From an uncultured delta proteobacterium (lineage in GTDB: Bacteria; Desulfobacterota; Desulfomonilia; UBA1062), in contig CAVVYZ010000005.1 of assembly GCA_963752595.1 (NCBI GenBank), forward strand, positions 96,001-160,000: a stretch of DNA of 64,000 nt, read 5' to 3'. A model generated the notes under the pieces. That model saw only the letters and a program-made list of their open reading frames with translations, was not told the DNA's origin and ran no database searches. Below, one piece after another: positions 3,397 to 19,719 of the stretch. Every line of letters starts with the position of its first letter. The stretch's first letter is position 1. Made by a program: the position numbers and the translations under genes.

Positions 3397-3986
3397 TCAA
3401 ATTCGAAGGTGCTGACAACCCGGTTTTTTCAATGGCATACTGGTAGGGCTATAGGGTGCAGATTCATCATTTCCATCACTTCCGAAAATCCGGATTGTAC
3501 CCTGGTTGGCAGAGCGGATCTTGCCGACTCGTGCACCGGAATCTGAGGCAAACTGCTGGGCCGTCATGCGTGCATTCTTTGTAGCGTCGGCGAGGAGCTG
3601 AGGCCGCAGGGCATTAAAGGCAGTGATGACATATCGGGGATCGGCTGTCCCTCCTTCCTGTTGGCCGTCCAGGACTACGCCGGACTTGAGCAGCTCTTCG
3701 GTTGTCCCCACTGCTTTTGTCACGAGGTCGACCTTTGAAGTTGCCACAACCAGATTGCCCGGTCTGCCTTAACCTCTTTTTCCACCAATCCCTTGACAGT
3801 AACCGTTCGAGTATCAGACTTAAAGCGTGCAGCGCCCTTCCCAATGAAGTATCCTCCGAGCGTAAGCCCGGCGAGAAGACATACACCCACGATCATTGCT
3901 GCCACCAGCATGCTATGGTTTCTATCAGATGTCATACTGTTCGCTCCTCCTTCCGGAGTTATCCCATGTCCAACGGCACAGATCAC
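3397..3986 (-). pseudogene. SIMPL (DUF541) domain protein, split and apparently internally deleted
   Basis: ORF 3720-3986 has RTVTVKGLVEKEVKADRAIW; ORF 3397-3747 has LLADATKNARMTAQQFASDSGARVGKIRSANQG. The middle is shorter than usual. Confidence 0.75.
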
Positions 3987-4788: not shown

Positions 4789-4874
4789 CCGTTATACACG
4801 AACAACAGGCATTGTAAACATCCTGCCGGAGCACATAAAAACACTCTGCAGTGGAACCATTGGGGGCCGCGACT

Positions 4875-6182
4875 GGTTAAGTCTCTATAGTTCTGTAAAA
4901 AGGTAAAACGAGCCAAGAGCAACTCCGATAAAGCGAAGTGACCAAACAAACGCTTGAAGGAGGAGCAGATGGCTCGCAGGGAAGATGATAAGGATTTATT
5001 GGGTATTTGGCAAGAGGCGACGGTGCAAGGAGACGATGGTTTGCGGAGAGTAATGGAATCGGCAATACAAAGGATCCTTGAAGAAGAACTGACCTCATTT
5101 CTCCAGGCAGAGACTCAGGAACGGGTACAAGCCGAGGGCATTGATGACCCGGCTGGGACGGATGGAGCTTCTGGTGCCCAAGGACCGGGAAGGCCGGTTT
5201 CAGACCGAACTCTTCGATCGATATCAAAGGAATGAGAAGGCATTGATGCTGTCATTGGTAGAGATGTACGTGCACGGGGTATCGACCCGGAAGGTCAAAG
5301 CAGTTACCGAGGCCTTGTGCGGATTAGACATATCGAAGAGTCAGGTATCCCGGTTGGCGAAAGACCTGGACGAGGAAGTAAAGGCATGGAGAAGTCGTCC
5401 ATTGAAGAAGTCCTATCCGTATCTGGTGGTGGACGCCCGATATGAGAGGATAAGAATCAATCATCAGGTATTACCGCAGGGTGTTCTTCTGGTAGTGGGC
5501 ATAGGAGAGGATGGGTATCGTGAGATCCTGGGCACCTGGGTAGCCGATTCCGAGAACGAGGCGAGCTGGTCTGAGGTATTCAAGGAACTCAAGGAAAGAG
5601 GCCTCAATGGTGTACGGTATGTGGTGTCTGATGATCATGCCGGTCTTGTTAAAGCCATTGGAAGGCACTTTCAGGGTTGTCTGTGGCAGCGATGCCAGGT
5701 TCATTTTCTCCGCAACATCATTTCTCAGGTCAGCAAGAAGGATCGGCCCAGGATCATAGAGATGGTCAGGGACATCACGGCTGCACAGAGCTATGAGATT
5801 GCCCGTAAGCGGATGGATGAGGTCATCGAGGCCTTGGAGAAGACTCATCCAAAGGTATCTCAGATGCTCGACGAGCATGGAGAAGAGATTCTTTCTGTCT
5901 ACCAACTGCCTCTCCATCACCGGAGATCGATGAAATCCACGAACATGCTGGAGCGGTACAATCAGGAACTGAAGCGCAGAACTAGGGTAGTTCGCATTTT
6001 TCCTCATCAGGAATCCTGCCTCAGACTGGTGACTGCCATGGCCATGGAAATGAGTGAAGAATGGATGGTCCGCCGATACCTCATCTTCGAAGATGGGGTA
6101 TCGGATAAGAACATAAAAGATCAGCTGGCTGCTTAATGCTTATGTCGGAGATTGCAATTTACAGACAATCGGGGACTTGACT
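4875..6182 (+). mobile_element. IS256-family insertion sequence
   Basis: 8-bp direct repeat CCGCGACT at 4867-4874 and 6183-6190. Imperfect 25-bp terminal IRs (GGTTAAGTCTCTATAGTTCTGTAAA vs revcomp AGTCAAGTCCCCGATTGTCTGTAAA, 16/25 identical). Encodes a Mutator-type transposase. Confidence 0.95.
4969..6136 (+). pseudogene. IS256 DDE transposase, frameshifted by an apparent deletion near 5112
   Basis: Motifs VPKDREG, GVSTRKV, VVDA, VVSDDHAGL, WQRCQVHF and STNMLERYNQELKRR. The N-terminal part (ATG 4969, GGAG RBS) is out of frame with RNGYKPR...TRLG. Confidence 0.88.
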
Positions 6183-6257
6183 CCGCGACTCAAAATTCAA
6201 CAAAGTTGATGCCCTCAATCCTACTAAATAATTGTCGCTGAATTACGATTATCATCC

Positions 6258-6635
6258 GAGGCTGTCGGAAAAGTCCGAAGACTTCTTATGGAATATTTCC
6301 TAATAATTTCTTGCTAATGCCATTATAGCCTATTTCATGTGAGAAGGACCTCATCATCTATTTGAGCAGGGGGGAGCAGAGCTTTCGGCGTAGCCGGAAT
6401 GTGACAGCGGCAGCCGCTCTTGCTGAGGAACCTTATTGAAAGGTATATTAACCGTATGAAACATTTCAGATCCCTCGCAACTCGGTATGATAAATCAGCT
6501 TCAAGCTATCGGACCTTGTGGACCATTGGTGCTATACTCCTATGTCTCTAGCTTTTACTTTGCGTACAGCACCTAGATCATTCTGTGAGGTCGTTTTCTG
6601 ATCACCATTGATCATTTTACTTTTTCGACAGTCTC
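6258..6635. mobile_element. Divergent relative of the 147-bp MITE, interrupted by an IS5 remnant
   Basis: Termini GAGGCTGTCGGAAAAG and CTTTTTCGACAGTCTC are inverted repeats. Internal CATTCTGTGAGGTCGTTTT is shared with the MITE. Confidence 0.7.
6426..6576 (+). pseudogene. IS5-family transposase C-terminal remnant and right end
   Basis: Hand translation RNLIERYINRMKHFRSLATRYDKSASSY... matches the RN.IER...K.FR..ATRYDK motif. Ends ...CAGCACCTAG. Confidence 0.8.
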
Positions 6636-6694
6636 TATAGATATCTGCACATTATCCTATTCATCCTATTCAAGAAATAGCTCATATCTTCATG

Positions 6695-6841
6695 GAGGCT
6701 GTTGAAAAACTCCGGGAAGTGCAAAAACTATCAAATCGGGACCATCAAAACACAAGCCTCGATCAATAAATTTCCAATGTCGGGCATTCTGTGAGGTCGT
6801 TTTTTTGTCACTTTTCAACCTTTTAGTTTTTCAACAACCTC
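6695..6841. mobile_element. 147-bp MITE, copy 1
   Basis: TIRs GAGGCTGTTGAAAAACT / AGTTTTTCAACAACCTC, no ORF. Identical by eye to 10650-10796. Confidence 0.9.
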
Positions 6842-6900
6842 ATGGGATATCTGTAGTACTAGTCAACGCTGGAAGGTTCAAAGTATATCAATTTTAATGA

Positions 6901-6968
6901 ATATGTCTGTAATAAGTGTTATACATAAATATATGCAGAATTAATTCTGCATGTCCATTGTTCGAATC
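6901..6968 (+). promoter_or_regulatory. attI-like region and first cassette recombination point (G|TTCGAAT at 6960), with a perfect 20-bp palindrome
   Basis: GTTCGAA (6960-6966) is complementary to R'' TTCGAAC of the first attC. AT-rich upstream. ATGCAGAATTAATTCTGCAT palindrome at 6933-6952. Confidence 0.5.
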
Positions 6969-6981
6969 ATAGGAGTATAGC

Positions 6982-7611
6982 GTGGGATACACTAAAAAGG
7001 ACTGGGTAGCACGAATCCGCGAACGTACAGATATGAGCACCCTCTTGACTCATCTGACCAAAGAGGGTCCGGATGGTAAAATTTCTAGGGAGGTCCTTCT
7101 TAAGATATTACTTGAGCAACGGCTCATAGGGAGTACAAGTACTCAAGGATTCATTTGCGGTGACACTCCTGCGGTATGCTTCCAAGATGCTCCTCTTTAC
7201 TCGATTGCTCAGAACACGCTATTCGAGCAGAAGATGCGCCAAGATCGCAAATCATCAGTTGTCCGCTATAGGCCTCTTGGGTTAGCTTTCCCCAAACCAT
7301 ATCTCTACATGAAAGGGGCACGGCCAGTTGTGTACGATGATACCGAAAATGCAAAGAGGTTTCTCCCAAGAAATGAATGGTGGCGCATCGTTCGGCTTGA
7401 TCTTTCAAATGAGAATGCCTTCGTGGATTGGACTCATGAACGTGAGTGGCGGCTTCCTGGAAATCTTGAATTCAACTTGAGCGAGGTTACTTTACTCGCA
7501 GTCGACAATGAGGCAGTGAGTAATATCGCTGCGCTATATATGAAGGAAACTGGCAGGGAGATTAGAGACGAGATCGGAGGCATAGTGACCATGCGAGATG
7601 TTCTCTACTGA
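6982..7611 (+). CDS. AbiGi/DUF2971-like protein with ADP-ribosyltransferase-like motif order; putative phage defence, cassette 1
   Basis: THLT...AVCFQDAP...RY..LGLAF...GARPVVY...DWTHEREWR. GTG start with AGGAG RBS just after the GTT site. Confidence 0.65.
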   Translation: MGYTKKDWVARIRERTDMSTLLTHLTKEGPDGKISREVLLKILLEQRLIGSTSTQGFICGDTPAVCFQDAPLYSIAQNTLFEQKMRQDRKSSVVRYRPLGLAFPKPYLYMKGARPVVYDDTENAKRFLPRNEWWRIVRLDLSNENAFVDWTHEREWRLPGNLEFNLSEVTLLAVDNEAVSNIAALYMKETGREIRDEIGGIVTMRDVLY

Positions 7612-7624
7612 TTAGGACTGGAGG

Positions 7625-7681
7625 TTCGAACAAGCTAATTCAGCGGACGGCTTACATCCGCCGCTGATCCGCACGTTCGAT
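7625..7681 (+). other. Integron attC site 1
   Basis: TTCGAAC-5 nt-AATTCAGCGGACGG...CCGCCGCTGATC-5 nt-GTTCGAT. R''/R' pairing is TCGAAC/GTTCGA, and the L''/L' stem has two unpaired bases. Confidence 0.85.
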
Positions 7682-7721
7682 GCATGAGAAAAAGATACTG
7701 CCAGGCTTATGGAGGTGACCA

Positions 7722-9023
7722 GTGTCAGTAGCCGATATGTTTTCCGAGTTCATTGCCAATCTTGCGATCGACAACTCTGAAACGATCAGCTCACGTTACG
7801 GTGAACTGACCACGGCACTAAACAAGGCATTCCGGGACACAGAGTCGAAGACTGCAAACACGCTTCAAGTTGGATCGTTCGGAAGGAAAACTGGCATCAA
7901 AGGTATTTCCGACTTGGATATGCTTTATCTCATGCCCAAGTCAAAGTGGGACGCCTACAAAGACTCTAAGCAGCTCAAGCTTCTTCAGGATGTGAAGACA
8001 GCCATTCTCAATCGATATCCAAAAACTGACGTTCAGGTTGATCGGCTTGTAGTAACCGTCACCTACACGAACTTTTACGTAGAGGTGCAGCCCGTATTCG
8101 AGCAAGATGATGGAAGCTTTAAGTATCCTGACACGAAGAATGGAGGCGTATGGAAGACCACCAAACCACGAGAGGAAATGAATGCTATTGCAGAATTGGA
8201 CACGTGGAAGAACTCAAACCTTCGTCGACTCTGCAAAATGGCTCGCGCATGGAGGAATAAGCATGGTGCCGGAATGGGGGGCCTCCTTATCGACACGCTT
8301 GCATACAATTTTCTTAAGTCGACAAGCGAGTATGATACAAAGAGTTTCCTTTACTATGATGAACTCAGCCGGGATTTCTTCGAATATCTCTCTGAACTCC
8401 CCAAGCAAGACCGCTACGACGCTCCCGGAAGCAAGCAGCATGTCAAAGTCAAGAAAGCATTCCAACGAAAAGCAGCGAAAGCATATCGCCTCTGCGTCAA
8501 GGCAATTGAGGCGGAAGGCACAAAGGGCGTTAACGATAAGTGGAAGAAAGTATTTGGACGCCCATTCCCCGCTAACGCCGAACTGACAAAAGAGGTCGTC
8601 CTCGCGAATAGCACAGCGACTTGGGACGATACTGAGGAATTTATTGAAGACCGATACCCCGTCGACATCCGCTACACACTTAAGATTGACTGCGACGTAA
8701 AACAGAACGGCTTCCGCGAGGACCGCTTAAGCGCGATGCTCGCAAAGATGATTCCTTTGCTAGCGAAGAAAACACTCGAGTTCGAGATTGTGCAGATAGA
8801 TGTGCCAGGGAAGTATTCGATTGAATGGAAGGTTCTTAACAGAGGAGAGGAAGCCCGCAGGCGTAACAAAATAAGAGGGCAAATTGTCCGTGATGATGGA
8901 TCTCACACGAAGATTGAACCAACCTCTTTCAAAGGCGACCACGTTGTCGAGTGTTATGCAATAAAGAATGGAGTGGTTGTAGCGAAAGATCGAATCCACG
9001 TGCCAATCAGTACAAACGGTTAA
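7722..9023 (+). CDS. SMODS/CD-NTase (cGAS/DncV-like) nucleotidyltransferase with C-terminal AGS-C domain
   Basis: GSFGRKTGIKGISDLDM (GS...DxD), VEVQP, YPDT..GG.W..TKP and LCKMARAW motifs. C-terminal WKVLNRGEEA...RGQI...EPTSFKGDHVVECY is the AGS-C signature. Confidence 0.92.
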   Translation: MSVADMFSEFIANLAIDNSETISSRYGELTTALNKAFRDTESKTANTLQVGSFGRKTGIKGISDLDMLYLMPKSKWDAYKDSKQLKLLQDVKTAILNRYPKTDVQVDRLVVTVTYTNFYVEVQPVFEQDDGSFKYPDTKNGGVWKTTKPREEMNAIAELDTWKNSNLRRLCKMARAWRNKHGAGMGGLLIDTLAYNFLKSTSEYDTKSFLYYDELSRDFFEYLSELPKQDRYDAPGSKQHVKVKKAFQRKAAKAYRLCVKAIEAEGTKGVNDKWKKVFGRPFPANAELTKEVVLANSTATWDDTEEFIEDRYPVDIRYTLKIDCDVKQNGFREDRLSAMLAKMIPLLAKKTLEFEIVQIDVPGKYSIEWKVLNRGEEARRRNKIRGQIVRDDGSHTKIEPTSFKGDHVVECYAIKNGVVVAKDRIHVPISTNG

Positions 9024-9027
9024 TGCC

Positions 9028-9603
9028 ATGAAGAAAGAAGACATCCTTAGAAACATAGCCGAAACAGGGTATAATGTAGGCTTTGGTGCGAAGAAACACT
9101 TCGCTACGTACGACATTGTGGCAAAAGTTCCTGGTCTAATTGGTTTTGCATCGACTGCAGTTGGTATCTTCGCCCTCTTTATAGATTTTCTCTCCACGAA
9201 GCATCTATCCGCTGCGTTTATAGTCTTTGGTGTTGCGGGACTTTTCATCAGCCATTACGACCATAAAAAGCAGAGCTATGCGGACGCAGGAAGCGAACTT
9301 ACCGTACTATTTAACCGACTAAAGGCGCTTTATTTCAACGTAAAGGGGACCGATGCGCGCGATCTCAACGAGTTCGAAAATGAGCTGGTGAATATTGAAC
9401 ATGATTATTACGCTAAATGTATAAGCGAGCAGATCCTCTTTAGTGATTGGTATGCTCACTACAAGTTCTTCTGGCAGCACCAAATTGGTTGGATCGAAGA
9501 GCAGAAGCGATTTCGGTTCTTTCGCGATAAGGTACCGCTTAGCCTTATGGTGACGATTCTTTTTGTGGTGATCGTATCTGGTTTGGTTATCTGGTTGGGT
9601 TAA
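9028..9603 (+). CDS. SLATT-family transmembrane effector (CBASS-type)
   Basis: YNVGFGAKKHF motif, two N-terminal TM helices and a C-terminal TM. Starts 4 nt after the CD-NTase stop. Confidence 0.85.
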   Translation: MKKEDILRNIAETGYNVGFGAKKHFATYDIVAKVPGLIGFASTAVGIFALFIDFLSTKHLSAAFIVFGVAGLFISHYDHKKQSYADAGSELTVLFNRLKALYFNVKGTDARDLNEFENELVNIEHDYYAKCISEQILFSDWYAHYKFFWQHQIGWIEEQKRFRFFRDKVPLSLMVTILFVVIVSGLVIWLG

Positions 9604-9629
9604 AAAAACCATTAACGGTTCATAGAGCG

Positions 9630-9686
9630 GCATCGAACAAGGCGGCGGACGCCGACAAGTCGCGCCGCTGAGCTTAAACGTTACTC
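9630..9686 (+). other. Integron attC site 2, L'' arm apparently shortened
   Basis: GCATCGAAC AAGGC GGCGGAC...CGCCGCTGAGCTTAAAC GTTAC. GCATCGAAC is the exact reverse complement of GTTCGATGC at 7675-7683. Confidence 0.8.
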
Positions 9687-9699
9687 CAGGAGTCTGAAA

Positions 9700-10506
9700 G
9701 TGCCATCTTGTAAAATATGTAGAGAAGCTATTTTCGATGGTATTCATCTTTCCGATGGTGAGATGATCCATGAATCGTGCTTGAAAAACATTCAAGGCAA
9801 GGAAAAGGAAGTTGAAAACTACATATATGCACAGAAAGATAAATTGAAAAGGCTTAGGCAAGAAATTGAAAGACGTGAAGGGTTGGGATTTAAGATTATA
9901 TCAATATTTTCAAAGCCTGACATTGCTACCTTTGACATAGAAAGGGAAATTCCAACAATTGAGAAAAATATTTCTAGTTTGTCCAACAACTTGATATCCT
10001 TGCAAGCTTATACCACTTCTATTTACGATTACTTTCTTTCATATCCCCCTGATTGGGAAAAAAGAAGACGTCAAGTAATAGAAAGAGATGGTGAGCAATG
10101 CAGTGAATGCGGGAACGGGGGGCATCTTCACTTACACCATATCAAGCCCTTATCTAAGGGAGGCAGTAATAAAATATCAAATTTAAAACTGCTATGTGAA
10201 AATTGTCACTCGGAAGAGCACTGTGGGCGAAATTTCTCTGGTGAGTTTAACAGTTCGGAAACAGCATTTTCTAAACGTTTAGCAAATATACGATATGCCA
10301 TAGACAACGGAAAGCGTATTAAATTTAGCTACATGAAGTATAACGAAAAAAGCTATAAACAAAGAACCGTTAAGCCAGCTGAACTTGTAAATTTAGACCA
10401 TCATAGAGATAGTGGATCAACTCTTTGTGTTCGTGGATATTGTGAACTAAGGGAAGCGGAACGCGTATTTGCATTAAAGCGAATGAAGGGCCTGAAAGTA
10501 TTATAG
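9700..10506 (+). CDS. HNH endonuclease-WYL domain fusion with N-terminal Zn-binding motif and coiled coil, cassette 3
   Basis: CxxC...HxxC N-terminus. HNH: PPDWEKRR..V.ERDG..CSECG...HLHHIKPLSKGGSN...NL..LCENCH. WYL: AIDNGKRIKFSY...RTVKP...GYCELREAERVFALKRM. Very AT-rich. Confidence 0.85.
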   Translation: MPSCKICREAIFDGIHLSDGEMIHESCLKNIQGKEKEVENYIYAQKDKLKRLRQEIERREGLGFKIISIFSKPDIATFDIEREIPTIEKNISSLSNNLISLQAYTTSIYDYFLSYPPDWEKRRRQVIERDGEQCSECGNGGHLHLHHIKPLSKGGSNKISNLKLLCENCHSEEHCGRNFSGEFNSSETAFSKRLANIRYAIDNGKRIKFSYMKYNEKSYKQRTVKPAELVNLDHHRDSGSTLCVRGYCELREAERVFALKRMKGLKVL

Positions 10507-10531
10507 GCATAACAAGCCCATCAACTCGGAT
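10506..10531 (+). other. Truncated attC site 3 (R'' and L'' half only)
   Basis: GGCATAAC AAGCC CATCAACTCGGA directly after the stop codon. No L'/R' arm found before MITE copy 2. Confidence 0.6.
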
Positions 10532-10649
10532 AGGGGATTTCCCCCAGGAATAGATCTCAATAAGCACCAAAAAGTAGTTATCGGAATGGTCAAAACAATT
10601 GGCAGGGCTCAAAACCCTTCATATTGTTTTTAGTATACACATTATCCTA

Positions 10650-10796
10650 GAGGCTGTTGAAAAACTCCGGGAAGTGCAAAAACTATCAAATCGGGACCAT
10701 CAAAACACAAGCCTCGATCAATAAATTTCCAATGTCGGGCATTCTGTGAGGTCGTTTTTTTGTCACTTTTCAACCTTTTAGTTTTTCAACAACCTC
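10650..10796. mobile_element. 147-bp MITE, copy 2, same orientation as copy 1
   Basis: Identical by eye to 6695-6841; flanked by TA on both sides. Confidence 0.9.
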
Positions 10797-10851
10797 TATA
10801 GAGGTCTGTCCTTTCGGATGAAAATATAGATGCTTTGATATCCTTTGAACA

Positions 10852-12129
10852 TCAGGGATCAAGATTAGATACGTCCACGCATGATAAGGGACTTTTCTCA
10901 ATTTTGACCAGATACAGCGGGGAAAGCACTGTCAGGCCAAGAGCGATAATCATTAAGGCCTGACCTAAACCAAGATAGTCGGCCAGAAGACCGATTACAA
11001 AAGCCAGGACGGCGGTGTAGAATGCGGTTACCAATGAGCGGACAGACAGCGATGTCGCCAAGATTTCGCATGGTACGGTGTCACTCACGTAGGTTACGCT
11101 CATAGGCGACCTCAGGTTTTGGATAATAAAAATGCCCGTGAACAGAACAACTGCCGCAAAGCCATAGCCGAAATGATAAGTGAAGCCACAGAGGATGCCG
11201 AGACAGAAGCCTGTGAGCATCGTGAGATTCAGTGGTCTGGTAAGCGTATCGAAGTGCGCGGTAAATTTGCCTGAATACCTGCTGGCCCATGATGTCATTA
11301 AATAAATACAAAAGTAGACTATGCCTACTAATACAGCCGAACGCTGTTTAGCTTGAAACATGACCAGCACAGGCAAAGTCAGAGCTAAGCTCTTGATGAT
11401 GGGCTGCAGGAAATCTTTGACGGCATTGTAAAACCCGTCATAGATGCAGACATTGGTAGTTGCCCTGAAGGCCCCCTGTCCCCTGAACGTAACCTTCAAA
11501 CTCTGCCATACCATGAAGAAGCTTTCCTTGATACTGTCACTCTTATTAATTTCCCGATCCAGCTCCTGGGGATATGTGAGCATCAGGAATAGGTTCAGGA
11601 CATAGGGCAGGGTCGATATCAGAAAGATCACATCGTATCGTCCGCTCACGAAGACGATTGCCGCCGCGATCAGGGCTGAAACCGCCGAACCCTTCTGAGA
11701 CCAGGAACGGGTATGCCCGTAGTAGTCTACCTTTTGATCCTGCCAGCCGTTCATCTTGAGGTATTCGAAAATCATGGCCTTGTGAGTGCCTCCCCTGAAT
11801 GCTTCACCGAAGGCAAAAAAAGTCATGGCAAGCATCATGAGCCAGAAAGCTGATGCGTAATAGAAGATAAGGAAGGATGTGATGTAGGCCAGAAATGACT
11901 GAACCATTGTTCGTCGACGGCCGAGCGCATCAGCGATAACACCGGTAGGTACCTCCATGAGGCTTGTCATGATTTCCCGGTAGGCATAGAGCGTACCGAT
12001 CAGTGTGTAGCTCAAGTTTTTTTCCAGCAGGAACAGGATCAGAAAAGGCTCGAAGAGCTTAAGGTTTTTCAGGAAACCATAGGCGCTGAACTTGACGAAC
12101 TGGAGATCCTTTTTGTATTTTTCAGCCAT
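10852..12129 (-). CDS. MFS transporter
   Basis: About 12 hydrophobic segments; EVPTGVIADALGRR motif A. Confidence 0.9.
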   Translation of the reverse strand: MAEKYKKDLQFVKFSAYGFLKNLKLFEPFLILFLLEKNLSYTLIGTLYAYREIMTSLMEVPTGVIADALGRRRTMVQSFLAYITSFLIFYYASAFWLMMLAMTFFAFGEAFRGGTHKAMIFEYLKMNGWQDQKVDYYGHTRSWSQKGSAVSALIAAAIVFVSGRYDVIFLISTLPYVLNLFLMLTYPQELDREINKSDSIKESFFMVWQSLKVTFRGQGAFRATTNVCIYDGFYNAVKDFLQPIIKSLALTLPVLVMFQAKQRSAVLVGIVYFCIYLMTSWASRYSGKFTAHFDTLTRPLNLTMLTGFCLGILCGFTYHFGYGFAAVVLFTGIFIIQNLRSPMSVTYVSDTVPCEILATSLSVRSLVTAFYTAVLAFVIGLLADYLGLGQALMIIALGLTVLSPLYLVKIEKSPLSCVDVSNLDP

Positions 12130-12732
12130 GGGTTGTTGAGCGTCTCCGTGAACCTTTTACTATCCACCCCTAAAAAGATAACGTACACAAAGAATGCCCT
12201 CTTGAGTGCCTCTATTAACACGAAGATCATCTGTTATGGAATTGGGTTTAGTGCTACAATTTTCATCATGAGTCATGAAAAAACATTTTTTCTGCATAAG
12301 CAGGTTCTCGTCCGCTATCCCAACCCTGTCGGTGTGGGCATCGCTGTTGGAGGCAGTGCTGTATTTTTATGCGGCCGTCAGTCTGATCGCCTATATGATG
12401 GAGGATGACCGGGTAGCAAGCGGGAACTCTGATGTCATGGCTGTACACGTTATGGTAAAGGCATGGTCAATTGATGGGGAGATTATAAAGAGCTCTGCCA
12501 ATCGTTATAGTCTCAAGTATTAAGTAATTTTGTACGGATATATCTTGAAGATCATAAATTTCTAAATATTGTAAAACCAAAAATTTATCGCGAAACTGTC
12601 AGTACTTTTAGTAAGTCCCTTACATAGCTCTTGAATAAGTGAAGTGCATCGCTACAATAAATGTGTGGAATGCGCTACAGGTGAGCCTAGTTGATAGTAG
12701 AGTTTTATCAAGATATGAATGGAGCTTATTAA

Positions 12733-13038
12733 ATGAAAATTTCAGAATGGTTGGATAAAAAGGAAGCAGAAGGCTTCGATGTATCTCAAATCATATTGCC
12801 TGATGCCGTATCTTTTAACGATGATCCCACCGAAACTATTTTTTTTAAGGAGATTAGGCCTTGCGGAATCCTCTGCACAGGCAATCATCCGTTTTCTACT
12901 GTTGAACGCTTTGAACACTGGTATTATAGCAGAGGCCAAGACAAAGAGGCCGGTATTCACTCCTCCAAGATGAAGTGGTGGTTGTTTACAAAGGATAAAG
13001 ATACCGCTGTCGATGCAGCTAAGTCACACATAGAATAA
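12733..13038 (+). CDS. Hypothetical protein
   Basis: 101-aa ORF with GGAG RBS in AT-rich DNA; no family recognised. Confidence 0.55.
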   Translation: MKISEWLDKKEAEGFDVSQIILPDAVSFNDDPTETIFFKEIRPCGILCTGNHPFSTVERFEHWYYSRGQDKEAGIHSSKMKWWLFTKDKDTAVDAAKSHIE

Positions 13039-13384
13039 TCTGATCTAATTACGTGGCTATATGATCTTTTGAGGAGATCTTCGTCAGGCCTCTGTTTTGA
13101 TAAAATAGTGCCATGCAAAAGCAAGTGTTCAGTATTTATATTATTATAAACTATAATTATAATAATTGTCGTAACATTCATTATTCTCAAAGCTATATAC
13201 CTGGACTATAGAGATCATCACAGAATCTATGGTCTTGAAAAATCCAACTCGTTTCGTTGCCTCTAGCACAGGATATTCAATATTTCGGATATTTCGGAAT
13301 AATAGAGTCCGTGACATACAGTAAATTCTCATATTATCATATTACAAGAAATCAGTAAGCAACATTTTAATTAATAAATGATGT

Positions 13385-13414
13385 AAGGCAGGGCAGCATA
13401 CGCTGCCCTGCCTT
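13385..13414 (-). terminator. Hairpin, probable intrinsic terminator
   Basis: AAGGCAGGGCAGC-ATAC-GCTGCCCTGCCTT just downstream of 13433-15376. Confidence 0.65.
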
Positions 13415-13432
13415 TGAAGGTACATCTGATTA

Positions 13433-15376
13433 TCAGCCTTTTCCCTTGTCGTGAGGAACGATGATCTTGATGGTTGCCGAACTCTGGTTGCCGGCTGTGT
13501 CTGTTGCATAGATCGTGATGGTATACGTTCTCCCGATACCGGACCCTGATCGTTCAGACCTGAGCTGCAGGGTGATGATCCCTGTCTGCTGGTCGATGAC
13601 CGGGGTGATCCAGTCAGGTGATACATCGCCATCTCCCAGACCGTCTTCCGGCTCATTGCTTGTCACTGTGGCGGACAGGCTTACGGGCATCCCACTCGAA
13701 TCGAATGCATTGGCCACGATGTCAACGGTTACCATCTTGTGGTTCGGTGGCCACAGGATGCCTGTGTCCGCGTAGGGGGCGAGGGTCGGGGCTGTGGAAT
13801 CGATGACATTCACGGTAGTCTGCGTGCTGACAGGGTCATTCACGCCATCGCTCACGGAAAGGGTCAGCGTATGCTGGCCGAGCATCAGGCCTGATGCCGT
13901 ACAATACGGGATCTGAACAGGGCTGCCTGCAAGTATCGACTGGATGGTTCCAGAGCATATAGTCTGGCCGTCCGCTTTCCATTCGTAGCTCAATACATCC
14001 CCGTCAAAATCGGAAGCCTCTCCGCTGAGGAACACGTCCGCGCCGTATTCATACGTCCCGCCGCCTCCCAAGATCGCCGCATGGGGGGCTGAGTTGTTTA
14101 AGGTAAAGATCATGGTGTCGGAGGCGCTTATCACCCCGTCCGTTACCTCGAGGGTAAGGGTGTAGGTGCCGGGCGGTATTTGGGCGCCCTGCGGGACAGT
14201 GAGGATGCAGTCCATGTTCTGGCTGACCGGAGTCCATCCGAGGAGCATGGTCTGCCCGCTATACCATCGGTAGGTGAGCGGCCTGGAGCCGTTGTACTGG
14301 GCCTTCCCATACATGGTTGTGCCATAGAGATTTTCACTGTACACGGTGATGTTGGGTCCTGCGTCTGCGGATATCTGAATGACAGGGTCGGGCAGGATGG
14401 TGATCGTCATCGTGTCTGTGGAGCTTTTCACCCCGTCCGTCACCTCGAGGGTCAGGGTGTAGGTGCCGGGCGGTATTTGGGCATCCTGCGGTATGGTGAG
14501 GTTGCAGCCCATGTTCTGACTGACCGGAGTCCATCCGAGGAGCATTGTCTGACCGCTATACCACCGGTAGGTGAGCGGCCTGGAGCCGGTGTAAATTGTC
14601 TTCCCCTGAATGACGGTATTCGGTAAATCCTTTACGTACACGGTCATGTCAGGCCCTGCATCTGCTGTGAGTTCTGTGGGAACAGAGATCGGACTGAGAT
14701 CGAGCTGTGCGTAATCAAAGGCGATAAAGGGCTCTTCCGGGGCAACGATCTCAATCGTCACCACCCCATCCAGCATATCCGCCCAGGGCACCTCATAATA
14801 CGCTCGCCAGATGAGTCCATCCTGAAAAGTCCCTGCGGAAGAATTCCCACTGAGAATCACCTGCTGACCTTCCACAACTGCATACATGGTTCCCACATCA
14901 TAGTCAGCATAGAGAAAACTGACATAGTGATTCTTTCCATAATCCGCATCACCTGGCTCAGGAACAGCAAAGGTAAAGGTGAAATAGGCATCGTCTGCGA
15001 TTCCCGGGGGATTGTAAAGCAGGGGAAATTGCGTATGCATCAGATCAGCATAAGCAGACAGGGTTATATCCGTCCATCGTGCACCGTTTGAAGGATCCTT
15101 TTCCGAAGCAGAACGGTTGTCGAAGACATCCCCGATTTCCCCTGACTCGAGCTGCATATCCCCGTCCTGATCGATGTCCGGGAGCACGTCGCCGGCTCCG
15201 AGGATGCCGTCGCCGTTTCTGTCTGCAGGGAGCCCGTCGAATCCGAGAAGGGATGATGCATTGGTATAACCAAAGCCATCGATATCCCCGATTACAACTG
15301 ATACAGCATGAACATCCATGCAACTTAAAAACACCATGAGTCCAAATAGAATACTGAACAACCTAACTTTTTTCAT
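13433..15376 (-). CDS. Secreted protein with Ca-binding-like DxDxDG motifs, duplicated PKD/Ig-like domains and a C-terminal LWPPNHK Ig-like domain
   Basis: Signal peptide; DRNGDG and DIDQDGD; two ADAGP...YTLTLEVTDG repeats; LWPPNHKMV...RSERSG...GRTYTITI.ATDTAGN. Confidence 0.8.
   Translation of the reverse strand: MKKVRLFSILFGLMVFLSCMDVHAVSVVIGDIDGFGYTNASSLLGFDGLPADRNGDGILGAGDVLPDIDQDGDMQLESGEIGDVFDNRSASEKDPSNGARWTDITLSAYADLMHTQFPLLYNPPGIADDAYFTFTFAVPEPGDADYGKNHYVSFLYADYDVGTMYAVVEGQQVILSGNSSAGTFQDGLIWRAYYEVPWADMLDGVVTIEIVAPEEPFIAFDYAQLDLSPISVPTELTADAGPDMTVYVKDLPNTVIQGKTIYTGSRPLTYRWYSGQTMLLGWTPVSQNMGCNLTIPQDAQIPPGTYTLTLEVTDGVKSSTDTMTITILPDPVIQISADAGPNITVYSENLYGTTMYGKAQYNGSRPLTYRWYSGQTMLLGWTPVSQNMDCILTVPQGAQIPPGTYTLTLEVTDGVISASDTMIFTLNNSAPHAAILGGGGTYEYGADVFLSGEASDFDGDVLSYEWKADGQTICSGTIQSILAGSPVQIPYCTASGLMLGQHTLTLSVSDGVNDPVSTQTTVNVIDSTAPTLAPYADTGILWPPNHKMVTVDIVANAFDSSGMPVSLSATVTSNEPEDGLGDGDVSPDWITPVIDQQTGIITLQLRSERSGSGIGRTYTITIYATDTAGNQSSATIKIIVPHDKGKG
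14110..14665 (-). repeat. Intragenic tandem duplication, 297-bp period
   Basis: GSRPLTYRWYSGQTMLLGWTPVSQNM and AQIPPGTYTLTLEVTDGV occur twice with high nucleotide similarity (e.g. TGTAGGTGCCGGGCGGTATTTGGGC at 14161 and 14458). Confidence 0.9.
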
Positions 15377-17829: not shown

Positions 17830-19719
17830 TTAATCCCTCATCATCTGCACGGGTTCTTTCCGGCCGTCGTATTTGAATGACAGGGTGACCATCGTGCCTT
17901 CATCCGGGTTGCTCTGGATATTTAAACCTGCGCTGATCATTTTCGCACGGAATTTCATGATCTTCAAGCCCATCCCTGAAGAGGCATTGCCGGCCATGCC
18001 CTTGCCGTTGTCTTCGATGGTGAGCGTTACCACATCATCGTCGCACAGGAGCCCGATATCGACTCTCGTTGCTTGAGCGTGCCGGATGGCATTATAGATG
18101 GCCTCGTGCACGATGTAGTAGATATGGGTGCATACGGAGATATCATCCACCAGGATCGATTCGTGGTAGTTGAACGAGCAGGTGATCCCGTACACCTCCT
18201 GGATGTTCGATGCCATCTCCTGAAGAAGCGACTCCAGCCCGTGGTCTGCAAGGAACACCGGGCACAGCCCCCGGGAGAGCCTCCTGGTTTTTTGGATAGC
18301 CTCTTCAATGAGGCACCTGATCTTTTCCACCTCCCCGGTGGAGGGGACGATGTTCTCCTGGAGCTTCTTCTTCAGGAGCTCGCTCATCACCTCGATTCCG
18401 ATGAGGTGGGGGCCGAGATCGTCATGAAGATCCTGGCCGATCTTCTGCCTCTCCCGCTCCCCGATGGTCATGATTTCGCGCTCGAGTGTCTTTTTCTCGG
18501 TTACATCTTCGATGGTTGCGATCATGCACGGCTCATCCCAGAGCATGATCACCTCGGCAGAGATGGTGGCCATCCGGATATCGCCCGAACACGTGCAGAG
18601 CTCCGTATCGAATCCCCTCACCTGGCCCTGACTGACCAGCGCATTGATCATCCGTTCATAATCATCCGACGAGCGGAAAAGCCCGACGCCCTTGATCGTC
18701 CTCCCGATCACCTCTTCCCTCTTATACCCGGATATCTTGGTGAAACTTTCATTCACGTTGAGGAAAAACCCTCCGTCTATCTTCCATATGACGATGCCCA
18801 CCGGAGATGACCGGAATGCCTTTGAAAACATCTCCTCGGAATTGCGCAGGGAATGGGCCAGGATGTTCACATATTGGCTGATGACTCCTATCTCCCCCTT
18901 TGTAAGCAACGGGATGGGCTCGACGTTCAAGTTTCCCTTTTCAAGCTCTGCAAGATTCTTAACCGTCATCATGAGCCCTGAGTGAATCCCTGCATTCGAT
19001 TCATAGACCGTGACGAATATCGCAGCCAGGGATAAAAATAGAATGATGAAGACGTGGGTGGTCAGGTCGGTGAACCGGACTCCCCCCAGATTCGAGAGAA
19101 AAAGAAAGTGCCCGAGGGTGACGAGCGGTATGATGAGGGCGGAAACAACGATCAGGGCTGTCCTGTAGGAGACGCTGAAGAGCTTGTACATGTGCCGGGG
19201 GATATATACGCCTCTGATCCTCTCGTCCATGAGCAAAGGCGCCAGGAGGTGTTCGGTCGTGCTGTATGAGATGACGCTGTTTATGGGGATGCACAGCAGC
19301 AGAATAAAAACGGTCGGCAGCGTTTCGAACCACGTGAGCTCCACGAACGATCGCATCATGAGATAACAGCACAGAAGCCCGAATAACCAGCGGAGCGTGA
19401 TGATGGTGCTCTCGGAGCGCGGATACGAAAGGAGCCTGAGCTTTATGGAGGTATAGTCCTCCCTTTTCGCCTCCAGATCGGAGAGGATATTGGAGAGTTT
19501 CCATATCCTGACGAATATGCCGAAGAGCGTGGCCAGGGTAGCGGAAACGATGGATGCGGCGATGAGGTAGTTGAGCTTCTCACCTTTGTATCTGCCGGCT
19601 ATGGTCCCATAATACATGGCCAGAGGCACCACGATGAGATTGATGTAGAGCTCGAGCCGTACGGTAAGCCTCAGGATCAATCTCCATGCCGAGATCATAT
19701 GCACGCCCCGCTGATACAA
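17830..19719 (-). CDS. Membrane PAS sensor histidine kinase (HisKA_3 type)
   Basis: Multiple TMs, PAS domain, ERQKIGQDLHDDLG, EAIYNAIRHA and DNGKG motifs. Confidence 0.93.
   Translation of the reverse strand: MYQRGVHMISAWRLILRLTVRLELYINLIVVPLAMYYGTIAGRYKGEKLNYLIAASIVSATLATLFGIFVRIWKLSNILSDLEAKREDYTSIKLRLLSYPRSESTIITLRWLFGLLCCYLMMRSFVELTWFETLPTVFILLLCIPINSVISYSTTEHLLAPLLMDERIRGVYIPRHMYKLFSVSYRTALIVVSALIIPLVTLGHFLFLSNLGGVRFTDLTTHVFIILFLSLAAIFVTVYESNAGIHSGLMMTVKNLAELEKGNLNVEPIPLLTKGEIGVISQYVNILAHSLRNSEEMFSKAFRSSPVGIVIWKIDGGFFLNVNESFTKISGYKREEVIGRTIKGVGLFRSSDDYERMINALVSQGQVRGFDTELCTCSGDIRMATISAEVIMLWDEPCMIATIEDVTEKKTLEREIMTIGERERQKIGQDLHDDLGPHLIGIEVMSELLKKKLQENIVPSTGEVEKIRCLIEEAIQKTRRLSRGLCPVFLADHGLESLLQEMASNIQEVYGITCSFNYHESILVDDISVCTHIYYIVHEAIYNAIRHAQATRVDIGLLCDDDVVTLTIEDNGKGMAGNASSGMGLKIMKFRAKMISAGLNIQSNPDEGTMVTLSFKYDGRKEPVQMMRD

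Follow-up and report, generated by a model that had tools for sequence, protein, structure and literature searches.

Two adjacent genes in the genome of an uncultured delta proteobacterium, one for a putative nucleotide cyclase and one for a putative membrane protein, lie between two sequences resembling attC sites. Do these genes constitute a minimal CBASS, were they delivered together as one integron cassette, and is this cassette still able to move? The window referred to below is the whole stretch of DNA that was analysed, 64,000 nucleotides in length.

Two-gene CBASS operon

The operon consists of the following features:

7711..7716, + strand: Shine-Dalgarno-like GGAGGT, recognised from sequence, 5 nt upstream of the GTG start
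7722..9023, + strand: CD-NTase of 433 aa, with matches to SMODS (E 6e-45, 153.8 bits, aa 1-158) and AGS_C (E 1e-50, aa 303-430)
9028..9603, + strand: SLATT_6 effector of 191 aa (SLATT_6 E 5e-74, 248 bits)

The HMM search placed the SMODS and AGS_C matches in one open reading frame, which corroborates the CD-NTase-AGS-C fusion proposed in a first-pass annotation of the locus. The cyclase is the sole SMODS match in the genome. It has the hGS motif, the DxD motif and the third acidic residue expected of a type I CBASS cyclase, and its catalytic residues are G51-S52, D64-x-D66 and E121. The residues G51, S52, D64, D66 and E121, as well as N373, G405 and H407 of the AGS-C domain, are invariant in 29/29 close relatives. 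The protein matched the PADLOC model PDLC00796 over its full length (659 bits) and scored below the cut-off of the NCBIfam CBASS cyclase models (110.6 of 200 bits). The AlphaFold model (pLDDT 85.6) consists of a nucleotidyltransferase body and an all-beta C-terminal domain, and the linker at residues 285-302 is loose and of low confidence. The best PDB matches of this model are CD-NTases, including CdnD (6p82, E 4e-15, TM 0.77 over the target). Judging from the AGS-C and SLATT6 architecture, which is that of EcCdnF04 and EcCdnF05, the cyclase probably belongs to clade F.

The effector gene begins 4 nt past the cyclase stop, so that a recognised effector adjoins the cyclase as in a type I CBASS. 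The assignment is confirmed by the NCBIfam SLATT_6 model, and a PADLOC match to the 2TM effector PDLC00695 (288 bits) agrees with the SLATT transmembrane effector named earlier. The protein is all-helical, with hydrophobic stretches at approximately aa 33-55, 57-75 and 165-191. Foldseek gave no match to the model at E<=0.001, VIA-align returned generic helical bundles only (best Z 10.8), and the tetramer prediction score was 0.19.

No gene for Cap2, Cap3, HORMA or Trip13 was found at the operon, and the neighbouring genes are unrelated. The two genes stand alone between the attC sites, and Prok-JAB had no match in the genome, which is 84% complete (8/14 controls matched). The absence of Cap2/Cap3 and HORMA genes from the operon was thus noted correctly. 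Genome-wide searches for HORMA and E2 domains matched no control and are hence uninformative. The domain matches and the CD-NTase fold argue for the minimal CBASS that had been postulated. The SMODS/SLATT scheme reportedly goes back to Burroughs in 2015.

By analogy with known systems, phage infection would switch on the cyclase with the help of AGS-C, which phage sensing would require. The activated cyclase would then make a cyclic nucleotide. SLATT_6 would bind this nucleotide and oligomerise in the inner membrane, and the resulting membrane breach would abort the infection.

Boundaries of the gene cassette

The attC sites were located with a covariance model built from 13 sites of the host contigs C20, C13 and C16, with the sites of the window left out. 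The model gave 33 matches in the whole genome. Applied to the 64-kb window, it gave three: attC1, attC2 and one match at chance level (E 0.68). The sites and the cassette between them are:

7625..7681, + strand: attC1, intact (48 bits, E 1e-10); forms the end of cassette 1 and the start of the CBASS cassette
7675..9679, + strand: CBASS gene cassette of 2,005 bp; it begins with the R' core GTTCGAT and stops where attC2 ends, ahead of the next crossover point
9632..9686, + strand: attC2, damaged (24.8 bits, E 2e-4), the lowest of the 33 genome matches

The cassette contains the two genes alone, both on the + strand and 4 nt apart. On the upstream side it is bounded by the R' core of attC1, a valid attC site. 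At its 3′ end it has an attC site of its own, the R'' of which is complementary to the 5′ end of the cassette over 9 bp. The sequences GTTCGATGC at 7675-7683 and GCATCGAAC at 9630-9638 are exact reverse complements, at the positions given in the first-pass annotation. There, the unit had been drawn from 7675 to 9686. It is indeed a single cassette, but it stops at 9679: the last seven nucleotides, 9680-9686, are the R' of the following cassette and lie outside the CBASS cassette.

The 9-bp match had been described as expected of a unit that was once an excised circle. It is a genuine cassette signature, but it is not special in this genome. Among the 24 other attC-to-attC intervals shorter than 4 kb in the host, complementary ends with a 7/7 match occur in 13, and nine consecutive matching bases in two. 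The match was therefore rejected as special evidence, being a true signature that is ordinary in the host. A third, unrelated copy of the 9-mer is present at 18205.

attC sites and mobility

The boxes of attC1 are R'' TTCGAAC, L'' AATTCAGC, L' GCTGATC and R' GTTCGAT. Its bottom-strand hairpin is more stable than expected by chance (z -4.1, with 1/200 shuffles as good), and the site looks usable.

In attC2, the R'' ATCGAAC pairs with the start of the cassette, and L' and R' are present. About 5 nt have been lost; in the model alignment, the 5-nt gap falls within the spacer and the L'' box. AAC and the conserved GAC are 9 nt apart in attC2, versus 14-15 nt in 24/32 host sites, one partial match being excluded. 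The spacing and the gap together indicate that the L'' arm is shortened, as had been suspected from inspection. Seven other host sites are also short: three are apparently IS-interrupted, and L'' is intact in the other four, two of which have an early GAC inside it and two a short spacer. An intact L''/L' box with an extrahelical base, as expected of the own attC of a still mobile cassette, is missing from attC2. The integrated form of attC2 folds no better than its shuffles (z 0.0). Folding of the reconstituted circular attC, a check proposed with the original observation, gave a hairpin of -17.3 kcal/mol in which the R box pairs as a 9-bp stem and L' is left unpaired. In view of this hairpin, residual recombination may remain.

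Removal of the extrahelical bases from one attC site lowered attC x attC excision 130- to 490-fold in published experiments (PMC2727003). Single bases were taken out in that mutagenesis, whereas attC2 misses half an L box. Excision of the CBASS cassette would require attC1 to recombine with attC2. By comparison with these mutants, the loss of the L'' portion of attC2 probably blocks excision and leaves the cassette stuck.

Cassette array and flanking elements

The CBASS cassette is the middle one of a three-cassette array. The other features of this region are:

4954..6136, + strand: transposase of the IS256 family in two frames, at the position upstream of the array that intI would be expected to occupy
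6258..6635, + strand: non-autonomous element of 378 bp with ends related to the MITE
6695..6841, + strand: left MITE of 147 bp with terminal inverted repeats, flanked on either side by ATG, a 3-bp duplication of its own
6960..7674, + strand: cassette 1, starting with GTTCGAA, a 7/7 complement of the attC1 R''
9680..10530, + strand: cassette 3, with an HNH+WYL ORF (9700-10506, 268 aa) followed by the left half of an attC only
10650..10796, + strand: right MITE of 147 bp, identical to the left copy (147/147) and in the same orientation, flanked by CTA and TAT

The ORF of cassette 1 (6982-7611) encodes 209 aa with a sub-threshold AbiGi match (E 0.009). The half site at the end of cassette 3, attC3, has GCATAAC at 10507-10513 and the L''-like CATCAACT. 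It was not matched by the attC model in the 64-kb window, and its left-arm letters are the same as those of the host site C13:233899. As attC2 is without an L box and only half of attC3 is left, excision should be rare for both cassette 2 and cassette 3.

The array is not adjoined by intI. Neither TIGR02249 nor tblastn gave an integron integrase match on its contig, C5, and a full intI (TIGR02249, 458 bits) is found with an array of its own on C20. A cluster of attC sites without an integrase is called a CALIN, and this short array resembles one in having no intI beside it; IS1182-like and IS1111-attC are names of elements. The region 6844-6975, considered as a possible attI, has no similar sequence elsewhere in the genome, and an Rfam search over 4800-13500 gave one chance snoRNA match only. 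A Pc promoter was not recognisable, with 12 promoter-like sites versus 8.0 +/- 2.5 by chance. The sole + strand promoter-like site upstream of the cyclase falls within cassette 1, and the 5′ leader of the CBASS cassette is 47 nt long.

Homologous operons and their genomic contexts

Relatives of the cyclase are numerous: 3,849 of 7,998 scored candidates matched at E<=1e-50. Two further cyclases were found among 400 genomes of the phylum. Homologous loci with DNA numbered 39, of which 12 came from genomes, 26 from metagenomes and one from a genome of the same genus. After the exclusion of four duplicates, four partial cyclases and one locus without a SLATT match, 30 distinct loci were retained. 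A core-site test on these homologues was dropped as noisy, and the context counts rest on attC-model matches and coupling to hsdS.

An attC match is present at the operon edge in 5/30 distinct loci. Four of them have matches on both sides, namely L011, L015 and L033, which carry SLATT_4, and L020, which carries SLATT_6; on the upstream side, L011 and L020 match only weakly (E 0.018 and 0.07). Some relatives lie in multi-attC arrays. The cyclase of a further locus, L069, one of the two found among the 400 genomes of the phylum, is also situated between attC sites. It has 293 aa, is 43% identical to the window cyclase and is without AGS-C. The first-pass annotation had staked its reading on homologous operons occurring next to attC sites, and they do.

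In 14 of the 30 loci the operon directly follows hsdS of a type I R-M system, and none of these has an attC match. The upstream gene is Methylase_S in 13/13 tested cases, and the fourteenth locus has 62 nt of upstream sequence only. An E. coli homologue pair, L061 (66% and 61% identical), is likewise inside a type I R-M operon. The remaining 11/30 loci have neither an attC match nor hsdS. The cassette is thus one of several vehicles of this operon.

Origin and fate of the cassette

We consider it likely that the unit is a type I CBASS of two genes carried by one integron cassette, with a predicted cyclic-nucleotide signal and SLATT_6 membrane action, that it was probably inserted by IntI, and that it probably became stuck through the loss of part of the attC2 L''. 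The domain matches, the CD-NTase fold, the attC model and the attC-flanked homologues support the delivery of the operon as one cassette. The unit would have come in through IntI recombination and then become fixed. An ordinary chromosomal CBASS with attC-like flanks arising as chance palindromes has next to no probability. The 25/30 homologous loci without an adjacent attC match would fit it, but an independently built model scores attC1 at 48 bits, both matches within 64 kb fall at the operon ends, these ends are complementary, and relatives sit in multi-attC arrays. The attC model and the homologue contexts refute it. It is also very unlikely that attC2 owes its shortness to misassembly, or is a tolerated variant, and that the cassette is still mobilised by the host IntI in trans. 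The genome is a draft of 31 contigs with 6.8% contamination and 84% completeness, the circle junction retains its 9-bp R stem, and the spacer is also shortened in two other attC sites of the host. These two sites, however, keep the L'' box that attC2, the lowest scoring of the 33, has lost, and the neighbouring attC3 is broken too.

The same cassette might instead be stranded and silent. IS and MITE insertions would have separated it from intI and Pc, leaving it in second place in an array without a promoter, where it would give the host no protection. The missing intI on the contig, the IS256 element and two non-autonomous elements upstream, the promoter signal not above chance, the short leader and the decay of both attC2 and attC3 are in favour of this. 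All three ORFs are nevertheless intact and the active sites conserved despite the decayed recombination sites, consistent with selection acting on the genes or with a break of recent date, and integrase-independent cassette expression has been reported in V. parahaemolyticus (PMC12409362). We regard silence of the cassette as unlikely. Less probable still is a composite element in which the two MITEs captured the three cassettes and were moved by a transposase in trans, in the manner of IMU units. As in an IMU-like composite, two identical elements bracket the cargo: the 147-bp copies are 100% identical, in direct orientation, and enclose exactly three cassettes. The sole other close copy found in the genome, on C20, is 98% identical, and in the relative G004 the neighbours of the left-flank gene are unrelated. 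Class 1 integrons flanked by MITEs or IMUs have been published (PMC3575428); the array described here is similarly surrounded by two identical non-autonomous repeats. The published cases are resistance integrons, whereas the cargo here looks defensive. Three of them have target duplications of the whole unit, unlike the outer flanks here, which are ATG and TAT; the original IMU is likewise without an outer target duplication (PMC3575428). The left MITE has its own ATG/ATG duplication, and an empty site with joined flanks was not found among 30 relatives. Composite transposition of the MITEs is thus not supported by the target duplications, and separate MITE insertions are likelier than a composite jump.

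Comparison with known systems

The combination of SMODS and AGS-C with SLATT, cited by the first-pass annotation as an established architecture, is that of the phage-tested operons EcCdnF04-SLATT6 and EcCdnF05-SLATT6 (Richmond-Buccola et al., 10.1101/2023.05.21.541620). These also consist of two genes, for an AGS-C-fused CD-NTase and a SLATT6 protein, and have no ancillary genes. The likeness is one of architecture, and no integron context is given for them in the part of the source available to us. EcCdnF04-SLATT6 restricts phage at least 10,000-fold, AGS-C occurs in ~40% of type I CBASS, the product of clade F was undetected in vitro, and close cyclases beside diverse effectors were already noted (10.1101/2023.05.21.541620). 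The E. coli pair L061 shares the architecture of these operons and need not be one of those tested.

The closest description of a CBASS cassette is that of brc135 (gcu135), a two-ORF cassette with a predicted type I CBASS that protects against HK544 (Kieffer et al., 10.1101/2024.07.02.601719). It also combines a nucleotidyltransferase and a membrane protein in one cassette and was found without a mobile-integron context. The attC of brc135 recombined in an assay, whereas attC2 is damaged. The resemblance is one of description, and brc135 may or may not be a close homologue. Darracq et al. list 783 known defence systems in cassettes, never of more than two genes, and the accessible part of their text does not mention CBASS as one of these systems. 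The accessible parts of PMC12409362, PMC12082036, PMC13434031, 10.64898/2026.03.17.712381 and 10.64898/2026.06.24.734381 likewise contain no CBASS cassette.

In DancE-Cap15, the AGS-C residues N372, G403 and H405 are essential and AGS-C mutants lose defence; the product is c-di-AMP, DNA activates the enzyme and DnaK represses it (10.64898/2026.10.06.757031). DancE is also a type I CD-NTase with AGS-C, and these residues agree in kind and in spacing with N373, G405 and H407 of the window cyclase, as judged by position, not by alignment. The effector differs, being Cap15 in that system and SLATT here. Protection is also given by a lactococcal AGS-C cyclase paired with SLATT_4 (PMC11381338).

The first-pass annotation was right in its observation and, overall, in its interpretation. 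Since both the two-gene CBASS cassette and the exchange of effectors among type I CBASS have been published, the locus is of low surprise and is a new example of a published arrangement.

Exchange of the effector gene

Over the 39 loci, the effector is of the SLATT_4 type in 31, SLATT_6 in seven and neither in one. Thirteen distinct loci have a cyclase 77-83% identical to that of the window, and 11 of these carry SLATT_4 and two SLATT_6. The two effectors have no BLAST similarity (E 3.5), and the DNA similarity to the SLATT_4 loci ends within ~30 nt of the cyclase stop. Cyclases of ~80% identity are thus paired either with SLATT_6 or with the dissimilar SLATT_4, which is new.

The effector label requires five changes on a 37-row tree (bootstrap 5-6), and two of the changes are forced by well-supported branches; the backbone is poorly resolved, and two long outgroup branches meet. 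Of the labels, 17/37 were assigned by pairing contigs of equal length across match tables, with ~0.8-0.9 chance matches per set. A single SLATT_6 clade, meaning one origin of the pairing, was rejected (AU p 0.008) in a test made after a first look at a tree. No effector-linked crossover was found inside the cyclase: grouping by effector is seen in neither domain, and only two columns differ, weakly. The catalytic domain is 79% similar between effector groups versus 80% within them, and none of the pocket residues checked differs between the groups. These sequence comparisons suggest that SLATT_4 and SLATT_6 may read one messenger.

The spacer of the SLATT_4 locus L014 contains an apparent decayed start of SLATT_6 (z 5.0). 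Such a relic is clear in 1/11 SLATT_4 spacers, weak in L015 and L013 and absent in the rest; the search was chosen after the BLAST extension had been seen, and the relic is a lead only. The SLATT_4 proteins of L069 and L015 are 82% identical, although the cyclase of L015 has AGS-C and that of L069 does not.

It is possible, although we would not count on it, that these loci belong to a widespread integron-borne CBASS kit. One cyclase lineage would repeatedly trade SLATT_6 and SLATT_4 behind its stop, SLATT_4 would also serve an AGS-C-less cyclase, and the kit would have been fixed here by attC L-box loss inside a MITE-bracketed three-cassette defence island. Of the leads from this locus, the repeated exchange of SLATT_4 and SLATT_6 within a single cyclase lineage is the most useful. 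The locus extends cassette-borne CBASS to an AGS-C/SLATT lineage in environmental bacteria. The same operon is carried by an integron cassette in some cases and by a type I R-M operon in others. Cross-activation tests of the messenger, reported as undetected for clade F, are made possible by the ~80% identical cyclases that have either SLATT_4 or SLATT_6 as partner, and by the 82% identical SLATT_4 found with cyclases having or lacking AGS-C. If the kit exists as proposed, both effector families would read the same messenger, and the natural swaps would be ready tests of that messenger and of the role of AGS-C.

Integrons and mobile elements in the host genome

Across the host genome, 33 attC matches were found. 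The main integron is located on contig C20 (G000:C20 114500-134499), where an insertion sequence separates intI from the first cassette, and two near-identical copies of another insertion sequence, of the IS110 family, are inserted at attC sites. A copy related to this pair is present on contig C2 (222720-224183), also at an attC. At least four further attC clusters, on contigs C13, C16, C26 and C2, have no full intI nearby.

In the window, the region ahead of cassette 1 contains the following features:

6900-6960, AT-rich stretch 5′ of cassette 1
6933-6952, perfect palindrome within this stretch
6957-6928, promoter-like site within this stretch, directed leftward

The AT-rich stretch is placed like a remnant of attI and Pint from which intI has been lost. 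The non-autonomous elements of the window (6258-6635, 6695-6841 and 10650-10796) prefer targets with TATC...GATA symmetry and make duplications of 3 bp. Ends related to theirs bracket a DUF772 transposase homologue on host contig C2. Nearer the window start lie two short open reading frames:

3397-3986, minus strand, two short frames resembling a single putative SIMPL-type protein split by a frameshift

Homologous cyclase-SLATT operons

Another attC-flanked cyclase-SLATT pair is found in locus L069:

1419-3042 of L069, cassette encoding a cyclase without AGS-C and a SLATT_4 protein

The cyclase stop codon overlaps the SLATT_4 gene, whose product is 82% identical to the SLATT_4 of the AGS-C cassettes. 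A sister group of the same operon is located within type I restriction-modification operons (L012, L018, L019, L040-L049, L051, L053 and the E. coli pair L061), in most cases with its start codon overlapping the hsdS stop codon.

Products of the neighbouring cassettes

The sole match of the cassette 1 protein (6982-7611) is AbiGi, below threshold. Its relatives were found in 19 of 400 genomes of the phylum, in open frames of either about 200-310 or 420-730 amino acids; because some of these frames are of the longer class, the protein also exists as a domain of longer proteins. Cassette 3 carries one reading frame:

9700-10506, N-terminal helical region, HNH nuclease and C-terminal WYL domain

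This architecture matches an unnamed Atlas cluster with a score of 0.96. The cassette 3 product is likely a stand-alone defence nuclease.
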